A stretch of DNA of 64,000 bases, from positions 2,122 through 66,121 of IMG/VR virus record IMGVR_UViG_2671180676_000004; one strand, given 5' to 3'. Under the pieces are notes generated by a model. The model did not search any database. It saw only the letters and a list, made by a program, of their open reading frames with translations, and was not told where the DNA came from. Positions 37,449-43,955 of this stretch are shown piece after piece. Made by a program: the position numbers and the translations under genes. The stretch's first letter is position 1. Each line of letters begins with the position of its first letter. This DNA is from a virus. Taxonomy: Duplodnaviria; Heunggongvirae; Uroviricota; Caudoviricetes.

Positions 37449-37832
37449 GTGTTTATTGAAGCGTTTGCAAGTTTGATGCAGAAGGCAAAGATTGGCACGG
37501 TCGGGACTGACATTTTCTGTCACTACTTGCCTGCCAATGTGAAATCTGGCGTCCTGCTTATTAACCCAAATACCGGTATCAGCATCGATCATGAGCTACA
37601 GGGCTTTTATCACGAATCATTCACAATCATTGTGCGTGGTTCGTCAATTACTACGACGGTTGAGAAAGCCAATAAAATCATTGAGATGTTTCCAGTAGAG
37701 GAAACGGAATCTGGTGGTGTTTATTTTCGACTTGTACGACCGATGGCGATGCCAATCATTTATCCCAAAAATGATGGGGCATTAATAGAAGCAGGCATTC
37801 CTGTTGAATTTGCTGGCTATTTATTGAATTAA
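37449..37832 (+). CDS. tail completion-type protein (hypothetical)
   Basis: GTG 37449 directly after previous stop; position only. Confidence 0.25.
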   Translation: MFIEAFASLMQKAKIGTVGTDIFCHYLPANVKSGVLLINPNTGISIDHELQGFYHESFTIIVRGSSITTTVEKANKIIEMFPVEETESGGVYFRLVRPMAMPIIYPKNDGALIEAGIPVEFAGYLLN

Positions 37833-37906: not shown

Positions 37907-38653
37907 ATGTCTAATACCCATGTAAAAAACATCAAACTTGGTGCCTGTAAGGTGTCGTTTGGTGGTGTGGATTTGGGTTACACCAAAGGTGGTGTTCAGG
38001 TTGAAGTAGCCACTGAAACGCTGAAAGTCACCGTCGATCAGTTGGGGCAGACCGTAATTTCCGAATTAGTTCAGGGGCGCAACATTACCATCACCGCGCC
38101 TCTGGCTGAGTCTGTACTCCAAAACATGGTTGACCTGATGCCTGGTTCTACTCTGAGCGAAGATGACAACTCTGTCACGATCACATCTGCACAGGGCGTT
38201 AACCTGATTGATGTGGCGAAGGAGCTGGTTCTGACTCCGCAGGACACCACCGACTATGTGTTGACCATCCCGAAAGCGGCAACCGCGGGCAACTTCACTA
38301 TGACCTACCAGTCTGATGATGTTCGTGTGTTCTCTGTTCAGTTCAGCGCATACCCGGATGATGAAGGCGTTCTGGGCAAAATGAGCGGTCCTAAACCGGT
38401 AAAAACTGTGTCGATCTCACCGGAATCTCCAACCGTAAAAGCTGGAGAAACTGTGCAACTGACAGCCGAAATCACTCCAGCTGATGCCGCAGACAAAACC
38501 GGTGTTTGGGAATCCGAAGACCAGGAAAAGGCCACGGTAGATCAAACGGGTCTTGTGCGCGGTGTGGCGCAGGGTACTGCAAACATCTCCTTCACCAGCA
38601 ATAGCGGTTCTAAGAAGGCTACTAAGTCAGTAACGATTAACTCCGCAGATTAA
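37907..38653 (+). CDS. major tail protein with C-terminal Ig-like domain
   Basis: ATG 37907 with AAGGAG 9 bp upstream; C-terminal Big_2-like repeat (VTGV..GTA.I); terminator 38666-38693 downstream. Confidence 0.65.
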   Translation: MSNTHVKNIKLGACKVSFGGVDLGYTKGGVQVEVATETLKVTVDQLGQTVISELVQGRNITITAPLAESVLQNMVDLMPGSTLSEDDNSVTITSAQGVNLIDVAKELVLTPQDTTDYVLTIPKAATAGNFTMTYQSDDVRVFSVQFSAYPDDEGVLGKMSGPKPVKTVSISPESPTVKAGETVQLTAEITPADAADKTGVWESEDQEKATVDQTGLVRGVAQGTANISFTSNSGSKKATKSVTINSAD

Positions 38654-38708: not shown

Positions 38709-39026
38709 ATGACCAAATTACTCGATCTCGATTCCATTCTGCCTCCGAAGAAAAGCATCAAATTTGGCGGTCAGGAATATCCCATCGTTGAAATGACGGT
38801 AGGTCTGTTCGTTTCCATCAAGCAGATGGAAGGCAAAGATCTCATGAACATGTCTCCTGTTGAGCAAGTGACAGCTTATGCAGATCTGGTTCGTAAGGTT
38901 ATCCCTTCAGTACCTGACGAAGTTCTTGAAAAACTGACTGTTCCGCAACTCCAGCAGATCTTCACCTTCGCTATGGAAGTGATTGATGAAGAAAACGAAA
39001 AAGCGGCTGGCGAAGGGGCAAAGTAA
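38709..39026 (+). CDS. tail assembly chaperone (gpG-like)
   Basis: 105-aa acidic protein immediately upstream of tape measure gene. Confidence 0.55.
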   Translation: MTKLLDLDSILPPKKSIKFGGQEYPIVEMTVGLFVSIKQMEGKDLMNMSPVEQVTAYADLVRKVIPSVPDEVLEKLTVPQLQQIFTFAMEVIDEENEKAAGEGAK

Positions 39027-39106
39027 TTTCCCGCGATGAATCCGGGACAAGGACCGTCTCAATAGATCTCGGATTCTATTTCAGTCGTGTAGTTGCTCAC
39101 TACGCC

Positions 39107-39376
39107 GTGTCGCCATTAGAGCTACTGAACGTTCCTCTCACGATGTTCTGGATGCTCAGTCGCAATATAGACCGTCTGCGTGCGGAAGAGGATGTCCGCA
39201 ACTTACAAGTCGCTCGTGCGTCCCAGGCGGATGGCGAGGCTGTGAAGGCGTTCATGGAGGGTTTGCAACTCAGGATTGGAAGACCAGTCGTAACAGATAA
39301 AGTCTACGATCCAAGCCAGGATAAGGCAGACCCTGACGCCAAAGAGCAACTGATGCAAATATTTGGCAGAGGATGA
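39107..39376 (+). CDS. tail assembly chaperone extension (gpT-like; probable frameshift product with 38709-39026)
   Basis: -1 frame relative to upstream ORF; this frame is open from 38990; likely expressed as a G-T fusion rather than from its own start. Confidence 0.35.
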   Translation: MSPLELLNVPLTMFWMLSRNIDRLRAEEDVRNLQVARASQADGEAVKAFMEGLQLRIGRPVVTDKVYDPSQDKADPDAKEQLMQIFGRG

Positions 39377-42300
39377 CAAGGGAATGTCACAAAACGTAGA
39401 GTTTATCCTGTCGCTGGAAGACAAACAGTTTACAGCGTCAATCGATCGTGCGGGGAAACTGCTTACTCGATTTGGTGAGCAGGTAACAAAGCCTGCTCAA
39501 AAAATCCAAACCTTTGAACGCTCTTTGGGTTCGGTCGCCCGTATCATGGGCGTTCTGGAAAGCAAGCTCGATTCTACGGCAGATAAACTACAGGATGTAG
39601 CTGCCGGTTTTGAGCTTGCTTCAGATGCTACGCGTAAAATGCGTGGCAACATCACCAGCCTCAATTCTGGTCTTAAAGCCCTGATTGAGCGCGTCGATAC
39701 GACAACTTCTTCAGTAGATAAACTCACCGCGTCATTACGTAAAGTGCAATCAGAGCTAAATGATTTCTCTGATTGGGCGACCTATGCAAGCAAAAGCGCA
39801 AGCCGCTTTGGTACGGAGGTCAAAGAAGCCTCTGCGTCCGTGAGTGGCATGAATACGCGCCTTAATACCACGACGAAGCGACTCAGTAATTGGGGTGTCA
39901 CAACGAGTCAGGCTGCCGAGGGACTGAAAAAGGTTCGTGAGCAGATGGACGAAGTTATCGGACGTCAGCAACTGATTAGCAAGCCGGTACGCGTTCGTAC
40001 ATCTGGAAGTGGCGATGGTGGTAGCGGGCGGCGTAGCGGCGCTTCTGGCCATAGCGGTAAAAGTAACGAAGGAGGTATGTTCTCTGGCCTTCGTGGCAAC
40101 ATTTTCCTGCTTGGCGAGATCGGAGATGCAGCCAGAACGGTTACTGACATAATGTTTGGGTGGCAGAAGCCTATTGTTGAAGCTGCGGCCGAAATGGAAC
40201 GTATGCGGGTGATGCTTCGAGGGTTGAATAAGGAGAAGTCCAACCCGGGCCAGGCTGCCGCTGATGATATGAAGTACATCGTAGACATGGCGCAAAATGC
40301 GCCGTTCGCGATGCAGGCGTTAACAGATTCCTTCGTGAAGTTTCGTTCTGCTGGCTTAGATCCAACCGATGGTTCTCTGAAGGCGCTGGTGGACTCCGTT
40401 GCTCGTTTTGGTGGTGATAGTGAGCTGTTGAAACGTGCGGCTGTGGCCGTTCAGCAGATGTCCGGTAAGGGCGTTGTGTCAATGGAAGAGCTACGTCAGC
40501 AATTAGGTGAAGCCGTTCCTAACGCGATGCAGGCAATGGCAGACGCCGCAGGCATCACTATGGGGGAACTGACTAAAGCCGTTGCCAGCGGTACGGTTGA
40601 GGCAAAACAGGCGTTGTCTCTGATGTTTGTTGGTCTGCGTGCGGAGAATGAGAACGCAGCGAAAGACATGATGCAAACCTACACAGGTGCGCTGGCACAA
40701 CTTCAGACCTCATTTACGCTATTTGCAGATCGTGTTGGTCAGGCCGGATATCTGGATTCTCTATCAAAGGGGATGAAAGAACTGGCTTCAATCATGAATA
40801 GCGCGGAAGGGATTTCGTTTGCCAATTCTTTAGGTTCGGGGTTAACGACGGCAATCGATGGGTTGCGTCAGCTTGCTCAATGGTTAGCAAAGAACCAAGA
40901 GTTGGTAATTAATCTCGGTAAGGTTGTGGCCGCGATGGTTGCGTTCAAACTGATGCGAGCAGGGGTCATGGGGGTAGTTGGCGCTGGCAGCCAGATGGTT
41001 AGCACCTTTGCCACGATGGCGACCGCTATACAGACTCCATTTAACCTCGGCGCTACAGCAGTAACTCGATTCAATCGTGCGGCACGTATGGGGCTGGCTC
41101 CGATCCCCTCTCTTATTTTCGCCATCCGTGGGGCGATTACGGGGCTTAAAGGCGCTTTTGCAGGATTAACGGCGTTCATTGCGGCAAACCCTATAGGGGC
41201 AGCATTTACAGTCGCCACTGTAGCTGTTGCTGGCCTAATCACGTACATGACCATGCTCCGCAGCGAAACTTCAAAGGTCGTTGACGAGATTAGGAAAATA
41301 CCAGAGGCGATGACGGCGGCCAAACGTGCACAAATGGCCGACCGCGCAGAAAAGCTCGAAAAGCAGATTCTTGCTGATCAACGAGCATTAAAAACTGGTG
41401 AGGGTGTTAATTACGTATCTAACTCTGCCGGTGTTATTACTCACAAAGAGTCGAAGGCTGACATCGAAGCACGCCTGAAAAAAAATCAGGAGGAGTATCA
41501 AAAGATAACCGGCACGATAGCTCTTGGTGACGGCGCTGTAGCAAAGCGTTTGGCTAAAGAGGCTGCCGAATCTCAGATTGAGAAAATTCGAGCGGAAAAC
41601 CAGATTTTCGCGGCAACATTCGTGAAAGCCCGGCAAGAGGCTCTGGATAAGATCCAGAAAATCAATGATGACGGTTCACTTTCAGATGACGAAAAGAACA
41701 AGCTATTGGCACCGTTACGTGAAACGGTAAACAAAAGCTATCTGGAGCCTGCGCAAAAACTGGTTGATTCACTTTCTTCTCGTAAGAATGCGACCGAGAA
41801 GCAAATTGCGACTCTTAATGATCAGCTTGAAAAAGCCAAAAAGGATGGAAATACCGAGCAGATCCAGAAACTGCAAGGCAGTATTCGTGGTTATCAGGAG
41901 CATTTGGAAGCCGTTGCTCAGGAGCTGACTCAGGCAGAGTTCGAGAGAGATAACGCGGCCAAAACTGGTAAGGGCGTAATGTCAAACCAGGGGACTGTTC
42001 TTGGGTTAGGTACAACTGATAAAGCTGCTCAGAAGGCGCTGGCGCAATATATGCGAAACCAGATGGATTCTGCGACTTATCAACGTACTTTGCCTGACGG
42101 CACTCCGATGATGGACTTCGAAGGTAAGCCGATTATTGGGCCTAAACAACTCAAGACGCAGCTTAATTTGCAGAAAGCATCCAGTGCCAGCTCTCTGGAG
42201 AAAATGAGCGATGAAGAGCGTGCCGCAGCCATTGCCGCACTTACTAAAGCTCGTGAACAGGATGCCGCAGCCGCCGAGAAAGCAGCCCAACGATCAGCTA

Positions 42301-43955
42301 ATGCCTCGCAGCGTGCGGCCAAGAAAGAACAGGCAGCGCAACAGAAACTGGCGGCCGGATATCAGAAGGCTCTGGATAAAGCCGATCAGCTTATGGGGCA
42401 AATGGGTGAAAGCTCTAAGGCTACGGTATCGTTTGATCAGTCTCTTCGCGATACAACAAAATCGCTAACTGATTTGGCTAATGCGATTCCTAACGAGTTC
42501 ATCACTCAAGAGATGATCGACAAGGCGAAAAAACGTCTTGAAGACCTCAAAAATGCGACACCTGAATATCGCGAGATGTTTAATCGCCGCAATGTTGAGC
42601 AGATGATCTCCACTTGGGCACCGGAGGCGGATTCCATTATTAGTGCTGGCTATACGCCATCTCGCGAAGAGAAAGTTGCTGATTTCGAAGACACCTACAA
42701 CCGCAATCTCAAAGCGTTGATAGAACTTCGTGATAAGGCGTCTGATCCTAAAGTTGTGGCGCTTTATACAAAGAAAATCAATCAACTGATTGCTGCTGGC
42801 AATACCGCGCTTATTAAAGAGACGGGGACTGCGACGCAGAAGTTGGCACTGGAATACGAAAACCTGGCAGAGCAGGTCGAAAGCACCTGGACTGATTTGT
42901 TTAGTGGCTTAACTGATGTCCTGACTGATTTCGTTATTAACGGGAAGATGAGCTTCTCCAGCCTATCTCAGTCCATTTTGAAAGATATCACCAATATGGT
43001 CGTGAAGTCGCAGATCACGCTGCCTCTAATGAACATGTTGGGGATGGGAACCACCGCAGCTGGTAGTTCACAGAGTGGCAATTTGCTGACCGGGGTTGCT
43101 TCTGCCGTTGCCAATCAAGGTGTACGAATGGGCAACACTGTTAATGGCGACAAGTCGGTAGGAGAAGCCACGAAGGAGACGTCCAGTTCGGTAACTGGAT
43201 TGGGGCAAACAACACAGCAGACCACCAGCGCAATTGGCACAGCAACAAATGCGATTGGTAGCTGGGTATCGGGGCTATTTGATAGCACCGAAGCCAAAGA
43301 TGCTGAGACAAAAGCAGTGAAGGACTCCATCTTCTCGATGCAGAATCTCAGCTCTGTTACCGGCGCTCTGTCAGCCGCGTTTGCAATGCTTGGAGCTAAT
43401 GCTTCCGGCTCTGGTAATAAGTGGTTGAATTTCGGCGCGACAGTTGCATCTGGTTTGGTTTCAGTATGGGCTGGTGGTGGATTCGATGGATTGATGTCCG
43501 GTTCTTCTGGCTCAACTTCCGGGTTCAACAATCTGACCAGTTCTGCTGCCGATGGCACGAATGGTATTCCTGCAATTCCGAAGTTTGCAAATGGTGGCAT
43601 ATTCGGAAAAGACGGCGTGATCCCGCTCCGGGCATACCAGAAAGGCGGTATCGCCAACTCACCTCAATTGGCGTTGTTTGGGGAAGGCGATATGAATGAG
43701 GCGTATGTTCCATTGCCTGATGGTCGAACAATCCCTGTAACGCTCAGTACCGATGGTATGAGTGGAGGAGGAAATGTTCTTTCTCCGGTATCAATTGAGA
43801 TCAACGTCCATAGTGACGGTAGCACAACTGAATCCGGCGATACAGAAAGCATATGGAACAATGCCGCTCAACGGATGAAAGCAATCGCGCTTGAGACTAT
43901 CGCTCAAGAGAAACGCCCTGGCGGATCACTCAACCCAAACACTCAACGTAACTAA
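39363..43955 (+). CDS. tape measure protein
   Basis: 1530 aa, helical N-terminal half, Gly/Ser-rich C-terminal region; position after G/T chaperones. Confidence 0.85.
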   Translation: MAEDDKGMSQNVEFILSLEDKQFTASIDRAGKLLTRFGEQVTKPAQKIQTFERSLGSVARIMGVLESKLDSTADKLQDVAAGFELASDATRKMRGNITSLNSGLKALIERVDTTTSSVDKLTASLRKVQSELNDFSDWATYASKSASRFGTEVKEASASVSGMNTRLNTTTKRLSNWGVTTSQAAEGLKKVREQMDEVIGRQQLISKPVRVRTSGSGDGGSGRRSGASGHSGKSNEGGMFSGLRGNIFLLGEIGDAARTVTDIMFGWQKPIVEAAAEMERMRVMLRGLNKEKSNPGQAAADDMKYIVDMAQNAPFAMQALTDSFVKFRSAGLDPTDGSLKALVDSVARFGGDSELLKRAAVAVQQMSGKGVVSMEELRQQLGEAVPNAMQAMADAAGITMGELTKAVASGTVEAKQALSLMFVGLRAENENAAKDMMQTYTGALAQLQTSFTLFADRVGQAGYLDSLSKGMKELASIMNSAEGISFANSLGSGLTTAIDGLRQLAQWLAKNQELVINLGKVVAAMVAFKLMRAGVMGVVGAGSQMVSTFATMATAIQTPFNLGATAVTRFNRAARMGLAPIPSLIFAIRGAITGLKGAFAGLTAFIAANPIGAAFTVATVAVAGLITYMTMLRSETSKVVDEIRKIPEAMTAAKRAQMADRAEKLEKQILADQRALKTGEGVNYVSNSAGVITHKESKADIEARLKKNQEEYQKITGTIALGDGAVAKRLAKEAAESQIEKIRAENQIFAATFVKARQEALDKIQKINDDGSLSDDEKNKLLAPLRETVNKSYLEPAQKLVDSLSSRKNATEKQIATLNDQLEKAKKDGNTEQIQKLQGSIRGYQEHLEAVAQELTQAEFERDNAAKTGKGVMSNQGTVLGLGTTDKAAQKALAQYMRNQMDSATYQRTLPDGTPMMDFEGKPIIGPKQLKTQLNLQKASSASSLEKMSDEERAAAIAALTKAREQDAAAAEKAAQRSANASQRAAKKEQAAQQKLAAGYQKALDKADQLMGQMGESSKATVSFDQSLRDTTKSLTDLANAIPNEFITQEMIDKAKKRLEDLKNATPEYREMFNRRNVEQMISTWAPEADSIISAGYTPSREEKVADFEDTYNRNLKALIELRDKASDPKVVALYTKKINQLIAAGNTALIKETGTATQKLALEYENLAEQVESTWTDLFSGLTDVLTDFVINGKMSFSSLSQSILKDITNMVVKSQITLPLMNMLGMGTTAAGSSQSGNLLTGVASAVANQGVRMGNTVNGDKSVGEATKETSSSVTGLGQTTQQTTSAIGTATNAIGSWVSGLFDSTEAKDAETKAVKDSIFSMQNLSSVTGALSAAFAMLGANASGSGNKWLNFGATVASGLVSVWAGGGFDGLMSGSSGSTSGFNNLTSSAADGTNGIPAIPKFANGGIFGKDGVIPLRAYQKGGIANSPQLALFGEGDMNEAYVPLPDGRTIPVTLSTDGMSGGGNVLSPVSIEINVHSDGSTTESGDTESIWNNAAQRMKAIALETIAQEKRPGGSLNPNTQRN

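Follow-up and report, generated by a model that had tools for sequence, protein, structure and literature searches.

A Probable Programmed -1 Frameshift at an A_AAG Abutting the Stop Codon Joins Two Small Tail Genes of SSU5-like Phage-Plasmids

Results

Gene Order at the Locus

The window (i.e., the whole 64,000-nt stretch of DNA that was analyzed) is that of an SSU5/Cyrano-type phage-plasmid: its segment 37800–39500 is 99% identical to Escherichia phage Cyrano and 86–89% identical to Salmonella phage SSU5 and other SSU5-like phage-plasmids. The region is also found in elements from Salmonella, Klebsiella, Yersinia, Kluyvera, and Photorhabdus. Among 5426 complete E. coli genomes, 232 carry the ~700-nt segment 38700–39400, on plasmids only and never on a chromosome. 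Within the window, the tail terminator gene is followed by the major tail protein gene, two small open reading frames (ORF1 and ORF2), and the tape measure protein gene, and all relatives keep the ORF1/ORF2 pair in this order between the major tail protein and tape measure genes. The genes and coding segments are as follows:

37449–37832: tail terminator gene (Pfam PF12691), just upstream of the major tail protein gene
37907–38653, + strand: major tail protein gene including, in the same frame, a C-terminal Ig-like Big_2 domain (Pfam Big_2, E = 4e-26; named "tail protein" in phage Cyrano); upstream synteny marker
38709–39026, + strand: ORF1, 105 aa by standard decoding, candidate tail assembly chaperone (counterpart of lambda gpG); Shine-Dalgarno (SD) duplex of -5.4 kcal/mol
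39107–39376, + strand: ORF2 as annotated, 89 aa, GTG start, in the -1 frame of ORF1
39023–39376, + strand: -1-frame coding part (T-like), 117 codons plus TGA, equal to the "intergenic" 81 nt plus the annotated ORF2
39384–43955, + strand: tape measure protein gene (Pfam TMP_3, E = 4e-27; Tape_meas_lam_C, E = 2e-13); downstream synteny marker

The ATG at 39384 is preceded by an SD sequence (AAGGGA) and is the tape measure start annotated in Cyrano; a mechanical ORF list starts the same gene at TTG 39363, overlapping the end of ORF2, and the ATG is the better supported of the two. Every database record examined calls both small ORFs "hypothetical protein," none of these records annotates ribosomal slippage for them, and we found no report in the literature of a frameshift in SSU5-like elements. 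ORF1 corresponds to phrog_893 and the annotated part of ORF2 to phrog_1131, each listed in PHROGs as of unknown function. Searches of Pfam and NCBIfam with ORF1, ORF2, or their fusion gave no match, including none to the Pfam families TAC and Phage_tail_T.

An earlier note on this DNA had proposed that the two ORFs are tail assembly chaperone genes joined by a programmed -1 frameshift of the G/GT type. The geometry on which it relied is confirmed: the ORF at 39107–39376 lies in the -1 frame of ORF1 (38709–39026), and that frame is open from position 38990, just after a TGA at 38987–38989, to the TGA at 39374–39376. In the window, the -1 frame thus overlaps ORF1 by 34 nt before the stop codon, or 37 nt if the stop is included, and the 3′ end of ORF1 reads ...GAA AAC GAA AAA GCG GCT GGC GAA GGG GCA AAG TAA. 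The note had taken GAA-AAA-G (38997–39003) to be the only candidate slip site. It was right that this is not a canonical X_XXY_YYZ heptamer, and indeed no such heptamer occurs anywhere in the overlap (where the window has only G_GCA_AAG and A_AAA), but the overlap also contains an A_AAG at 39020–39023, directly 5′ of the TAA.

An Invariant A_AAG against the ORF1 Stop Codon

Three short features at the end of ORF1 bear on the position of the shift:

39020–39023, + strand: putative A_AAG shift tetramer (hexamer GCA_AAG, 39018–39023), present in 102/102 loci
39024–39026, + strand: ORF1 stop codon TAA, immediately 3′ of the shift codon; TAA or TAG in 102/102 loci
38997–39003, + strand: GAA-AAA-G of the earlier note, which includes the weak A_AAA tetramer; discarded as the conserved site of the shift

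We compared a set of 102 related loci, including that of the window, drawn from viral contigs, genomes, and metagenome assemblies, with ORF1 identities between about 55% and 100%. In each of the 102, the -1 frame stays open from a point ahead of the ORF1 stop as far as the ORF2 stop, with an overlap of 34 nt (i.e., open from 38990) in 53 loci, 10 nt in 46, 25 nt in 2, and 7 nt in 1 (L102), for an overall range of 7–34 nt. Because a -1-frame TGA leaves an overlap of only 7–25 nt in 49 of the 102 loci, SSU5 itself among these, GAA-AAA-G is excluded as the conserved site. The 10-nt class, to which SSU5 belongs, has GGT in place of GGC at Gly codon 101, a change that creates the -1-frame TGA downstream of GAA-AAA-G. 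A single synonymous difference between the window (GGC GAA, 39009–39014) and SSU5 (L002; GGT GAA) is thus enough to open or close the -1 frame at this point. The TGA in the GGT GAA loci sits within a GGUGA able to pair with the anti-SD sequence, and its candidate roles are those of a guard stop, a stimulator, or a neutral feature.

The end of ORF1 itself is invariant in form, reading [GCA or GTA] AAG TA[A or G] in 102/102 loci. All 60 distinct coding sequences of ORF1 have AAG as codon 105, whereas both AAA and AAG occur at the other conserved Lys positions; codon 104 likewise ends in A in 60/60, with either Ala or Val as the residue, compared with only 17% of GCN/GTN codons elsewhere in ORF1. 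A terminal A_AAG followed by a stop is found in just 1 of the 146 open frames of at least 90 codons on the two strands of the window, namely, ORF1. Within overlaps of 7–10 nt, the final AAG (re-pairing as AAA) is the only codon at which a tRNA could pair again in the -1 frame, and at L102, where the overlap is 7 nt, A_AAG is the only re-pairing site left. The register is that of a Z_ZZN tetramer: AAG occupies the zero frame at 39021–39023 and AAA lies at 39020–39022, so that re-pairing of the cognate tRNA-Lys is possible, and the P-site tRNA-Ala on GCA cannot re-pair with GGC. Judged from these comparisons, the best model would have the ribosome slip at A_AAG (39020–39023), abutting the stop codon, as the conserved site. 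The earlier proposal of a G/GT-type frameshift joining the two ORFs is thereby strongly supported as regards the -1 frameshift, with a site other than the one it had put forward.

It should be noted that the invariance of A_AAG partly reflects shared ancestry because all of the relatives come from one fairly narrow family; a scan of genome contigs for relatives returned only 7 loci. Among the collected loci, none was found to be arranged differently, for instance with G and T fused in frame or with a canonical heptamer.

Some other candidates were discarded. Transcriptional slippage is rejected, as runs of A reach 5 nt at most and only 3 nt at the conserved site, and so is a +1 shift on the GGGG run at 39015–39018, which gives the wrong frame. 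A 139-aa protein from an ENA metagenome (P0003) reads ...EENEKSGWRRGKVISRDESG..., in which ORF1 passes into the -1 frame at the A5 run; it was considered as a natural fusion and set aside, as a second frame error follows and the join is most likely a homopolymer assembly error.

Coding in the -1 Frame Upstream of the Annotated ORF2

The 81 nt between the two annotated ORFs (39027–39106) vary among relatives in the manner of a coding sequence. Across 25 distinct sequences, compared from the ORF1 stop to the window's GTG at 39107, the variable columns number 12, 3, and 23 of 29 at -1-frame codon positions 1, 2, and 3, respectively, and the stretch contains a one-codon (3-nt) in-frame indel. The encoded peptide, V[IV][ST]R[DEG]E[SAD]G..[TS][IV]SID[LF]GFYFSRV[VI]A[HY]Y, is conserved despite many synonymous changes, and the motif V[IV][ST]R[DEG]E..G..SID[LF]GFYFSRV is retained even where ORF1 identity is only ~60%. 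By the pattern of its substitutions, the stretch is under protein-coding constraint in the -1 frame. A feature of another kind is seen in the GFYFSR codons (GGA TTC TAT TTC AGT CGT, 39070–39090 in the window), where synonymous positions are almost invariant at ORF1 identities of ~55–60%; besides the protein constraint, this may reflect a superimposed RNA element, the 3′ arm of the long stem described below.

Initiation signals for the annotated ORF2 are poorly conserved. The first ATG, GTG, or TTG of the -1 frame in the window is the GTG at 39107, and relatives replace it with GTA, ATT, GTC, GTT, or TTG. No canonical start (ATG, GTG, or TTG) precedes the conserved GFYFSR motif in 91 of the 102 loci, and the position of the first one varies from +26 to +128 after the ORF1 stop. 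Gene callers accordingly assign ORF2 inconsistent lengths, from 74 to 131 aa, because the first canonical start wanders among loci. Neither GTG 39107 nor ATG 39143 has an SD sequence (the anti-SD duplex energy is 0 kcal/mol or higher), compared with duplexes of -5 to -8 kcal/mol at the starts of ORF1, the tape measure gene, and neighboring genes. An AF2 model of the T-like part, of low confidence (pLDDT 64), places a predicted β-hairpin and first helix in the segment encoded upstream of the annotated ORF2 start. It follows from the frameshift model that the annotated ORF2 would lack the N-terminal quarter of the -1-frame part and would not be made on its own.

Candidate Stimulators around the Shift Site

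Programmed frameshift sites may be flanked by elements that raise their efficiency, and the candidates here are one upstream element and two downstream structures:

39012–39018, + strand: SD-like GAAGGGG, putative upstream stimulator; anti-SD duplex of -7.1 kcal/mol
39029–39047, + strand: local hairpin UCCCG.GA-UGAA-UC.CGGGA, candidate stimulator; -8.0 kcal/mol, 5 nt after the shift codon
39038–39076, + strand: long stem-loop (39038–39047 pairs with 39067–39076), candidate stimulator; RNAalifold consensus

In place of GAAGGGG, most relatives have GGUGA 6 nt upstream of the AAG, with anti-SD duplexes of -7.4 to -10.8 kcal/mol, and the L100 lineage has neither (-3.3 kcal/mol); 11% of background windows match the anti-SD score of the SD-like element. 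The local hairpin is paired in 90% of cells across 19 relatives, an agreement that is uninformative since the sequence is invariant and shows no covariation, and its stability falls to -3.8 kcal/mol in some lineages. Its 5-nt spacer is the spacing used with tetramers in published constructs. The long stem is paired in 96% of cells (19 sequences) and includes 3 pairs with compensatory changes, values reached by 2–6 of 500 shuffles; its spacer to the shift codon is 14 nt, and in the window itself the z-score is -0.07, i.e., the sequence folds no better than when shuffled. The local hairpin and the long stem are mutually exclusive because the CCGGG segment is common to both. A search of Rfam gave no match in 38800–39300. 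The SD-like element and the hairpins are thus candidates, and no stimulator is firmly established at the A_AAG site.

Likeness to Lambda G/GT and Other Recoding Sites

For the class of G/GT-type tail assembly chaperones, we follow the definition of Xu, Hendrix, and Duda (2004; cited in PMC5009743). The pair shares its layout with lambda gpG/gpGT: it is flanked by the major tail protein gene on one side and the tape measure gene on the other, its downstream ORF occupies the -1 frame, reaches into the 3′ end of the upstream ORF, and lacks a start or SD sequence of its own, and the proposed shift codon is an AAG read by tRNA-Lys (G_GGA_AAG in lambda). The output expected is also the same, namely, a short abundant product and a rare C-terminally extended fusion (PMC5009743). 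The site differs from that of lambda in two respects: it is a tetramer or hexamer (G_GCA_AAG) without P-site re-pairing, and it abuts the stop codon, whereas lambda's G_GGA_AAG lies 5 sense codons before its stop.

At the level of sequence there is no such likeness, an hhalign comparison of ORF1 with lambda gpG giving a probability of 0.1% (i.e., no detectable homology). The AF2 model of ORF1 (pLDDT 72) has as its best match in BFVD a protein named tail assembly chaperone (E = 3.6e-4, probability 1.0, TM 0.64), and several more proteins so named appear among the top 20 BFVD matches with E values of 0.005–0.1; a Foldseek search of the same model against the PDB gave no matches, and the only good BFVD match of the T-part model (pLDDT 64) is an unnamed homologue. 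The description of ORF1 as gpG-like in the earlier note thus holds only by gene position and predicted fold, in a protein without sequence homology to gpG. We assign ORF1/ORF2 as a putative G/GT pair by position and layout and not by sequence, to which the predicted fold lends modest support. We describe the pair, which is almost certainly joined by a programmed -1 frameshift, as an unannotated addition to a well-known functional kind, with a site that is not a heptamer and that abuts the stop.

The shift site has closer parallels elsewhere. Both B. subtilis cdd and IS1222 shift at an NNA_AAG site (Atkins et al., 2016; PMC5009743). As in cdd (A_CGA_AAG) and the IS1222 transposase gene (G_CGA_AAG), only tRNA-Lys would re-pair at the present site (AAG to AAA) and the 5′ codon ends in A, but that codon is GCA or GUA rather than CGA, and the gene context is that of a phage tail chaperone. 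Both GCA and GUA are read by cmo5U34 tRNAs in E. coli. The efficiency of NNA_AAG sites depends on the wobble behavior of the tRNA that reads the 5′ codon (PMC5009743; PMC4066793). The A-site codon and tRNA-Lys are also those of E. coli dnaX (A_AAA_AAG), and a three-part cassette like that of dnaX may be present here too, with GGUGA or GAAGGGG as the upstream SD-like element and a hairpin downstream. Unlike the site described here, dnaX has a full heptamer and shifts with high efficiency, whereas the stimulators at A_AAG are only candidates and differ in their spacing.

A Second Stop-Abutting Site in Some Relatives

A similar layout is seen in the major tail protein gene of six relatives (L092, L094, L095, L097, L098, and L102), where the ORF ends in C_CCA_AAG followed by a stop (TAA, TAG, or TGA) and the -1 frame runs on into a Big_2 domain of ~84 aa. 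At L092:2170–2450, for instance, the major tail protein ORF is 163 aa long with Big_2 in the -1 frame; the equivalent region of the window is at about 38351–38440. The window itself has the Ig domain fused in frame (GPKPVKTVSISP), and no shift is needed. In the six relatives, C_CCA_AAG plus stop probably constitutes a second site of programmed frameshifting, likewise placed directly against the stop. It resembles the frameshift-appended Ig-like domains known on major tail proteins, shares with the chaperone site the arrangement "XXA_AAG then stop," and lies about 300–600 nt upstream of that site, depending on the relative; it differs from it in being a canonical heptamer.

Discussion

Our main reading, to which we give a probability of roughly 78%, is that ORF1 serves an SSU5-like phage-plasmid, a siphovirus, as its tail assembly chaperone and is joined to the -1-frame part by a programmed frameshift at A_AAG. 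Most ribosomes would stop at the TAA (39024–39026), yielding the 105-aa ORF1 product. A minority would shift by -1 at A_AAG, where the single E. coli tRNA-Lys would move from AAG (39021–39023) to AAA (39020–39022); G39023 would be read twice, the next codon would be GUA (Val, 39023–39025), and translation would continue through 117 further codons to the TGA at 39374–39376. The resulting fusion of 222 aa would read ...AAGEGAK-VISRDESGTRTVSIDLGFYFSR...GRG (with the junction AAGEGAK-VISRDESG) and would be analogous to lambda gpGT. We infer that tRNA-Lys would slip while AAG is in either the A site or the P site, the A site being occupied by the stop codon in the latter case, and that the stop codon, the SD-like element, and/or a downstream hairpin may tune the efficiency of the shift. 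By analogy with lambda, the two products would act like gpG and gpGT in tail assembly.

Published work on such sites is consistent with a shift of this kind. In E. coli, -1 frameshifting can take place at Z_ZZN tetramers (Sharma et al., 2014; PMC4066793), in the order A_AAG >> U_UUC > U_UUU > C_CCU = C_CCC > A_AAA, with A_AAG reaching up to 5.6% when followed by a pseudoknot and the tetramers staying near background in the absence of a stimulator (PMC4066793). Shifting by a few percent would suffice because the G:GT ratio in lambda is itself only about 30:1 (PMC5009743).

Other accounts of the locus fare less well. A frameshift may be real but take place, in the window, at GAA_AAA_G, with tRNA-Lys slipping on A_AAA (38999–39002) and a fusion that reads ...EENEK-SGWRRGKVISRDE...; the window and 53/102 loci have a -1 frame that is open from 38990, and A_AAA is among the six tetramers that rise above background in E. 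coli (PMC4066793). It is, however, the weakest of the six and far weaker than A_AAG (PMC4066793); a slip there would meet the TGA after 4 codons in 46/102 loci, SSU5 included, distant relatives that retain the T frame have GAA GCC in place of the A-run, and neither a slow codon nor a suitably spaced structure follows the site. We allow this account a very slim chance, and A_AAA could at most be a minor, lineage-specific extra shift site beside A_AAG. Somewhat less remote, if still quite improbable, is the absence of any frameshift, with ORF2 translated independently from GTG 39107 or ATG 39143 and the conservation upstream due to some other cause. This is how all database records (GenBank and RefSeq) annotate the gene, and GTG 39107 is present in many close relatives, yet the codon is not conserved beyond these, neither start has an SD sequence, the 81 nt upstream show their codon-position pattern and in-frame indel in exactly the -1 frame, and the predicted β-hairpin and first helix of the T-like part are encoded before the annotated start.

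Separate synthesis of the T-like part could also come about by termination-reinitiation or non-canonical initiation close to the ORF1 stop (e.g., at the ATT at 39026–39028, which overlaps the TAA), giving a free T protein of 116–117 aa. Phage operons often couple translation where stop and start signals overlap, and the conserved -1-frame coding begins right at the stop codon, in keeping with such a mechanism; the codon at that point, however, is ATT, GTT, ATC, ATA, GTA, or GAA depending on the relative, with no conserved initiator, an AUG, GUG, or UUG is out of reach in 91/102 loci, and the invariant A_AAG would be left without a role. Of all the accounts considered, we rate this one lowest.

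The probable second site in the major tail protein gene of some relatives raises the broader idea that SSU5-like phage-plasmids use a distinct, reusable -1 cassette, in which NNA_AAG set against a stop, often preceded by a -1-frame TGA within an SD-like GGUGA, is followed by two mutually exclusive hairpins, and which would be deployed twice in the tail operon (for the chaperone and, in some lineages, for the Ig extension). We regard this idea as speculative and rather unlikely. If the rate of shifting were governed by the abutting stop and by competition with release factor, the G:GT ratio would vary with the termination efficiency of the host, and release-factor tuning would, if true, be a principle other than that of lambda's heptamer.

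The frameshift proposed here is an ordinary case of a well-known phage recoding event at a somewhat unusual site, and the current understanding of tail assembly is unchanged by it. What it would change is the description of the genes: the gene model is corrected from two hypothetical proteins to one product of 105 aa and one fusion of 222 aa, and a probable function is assigned to two PHROG families of unknown function, 893 and 1131. The A_AAG at the end of ORF1 would also be a natural example of a shift site that is not a heptamer and that abuts the stop codon, of a kind that predictors searching for X_XXY_YYZ will miss.
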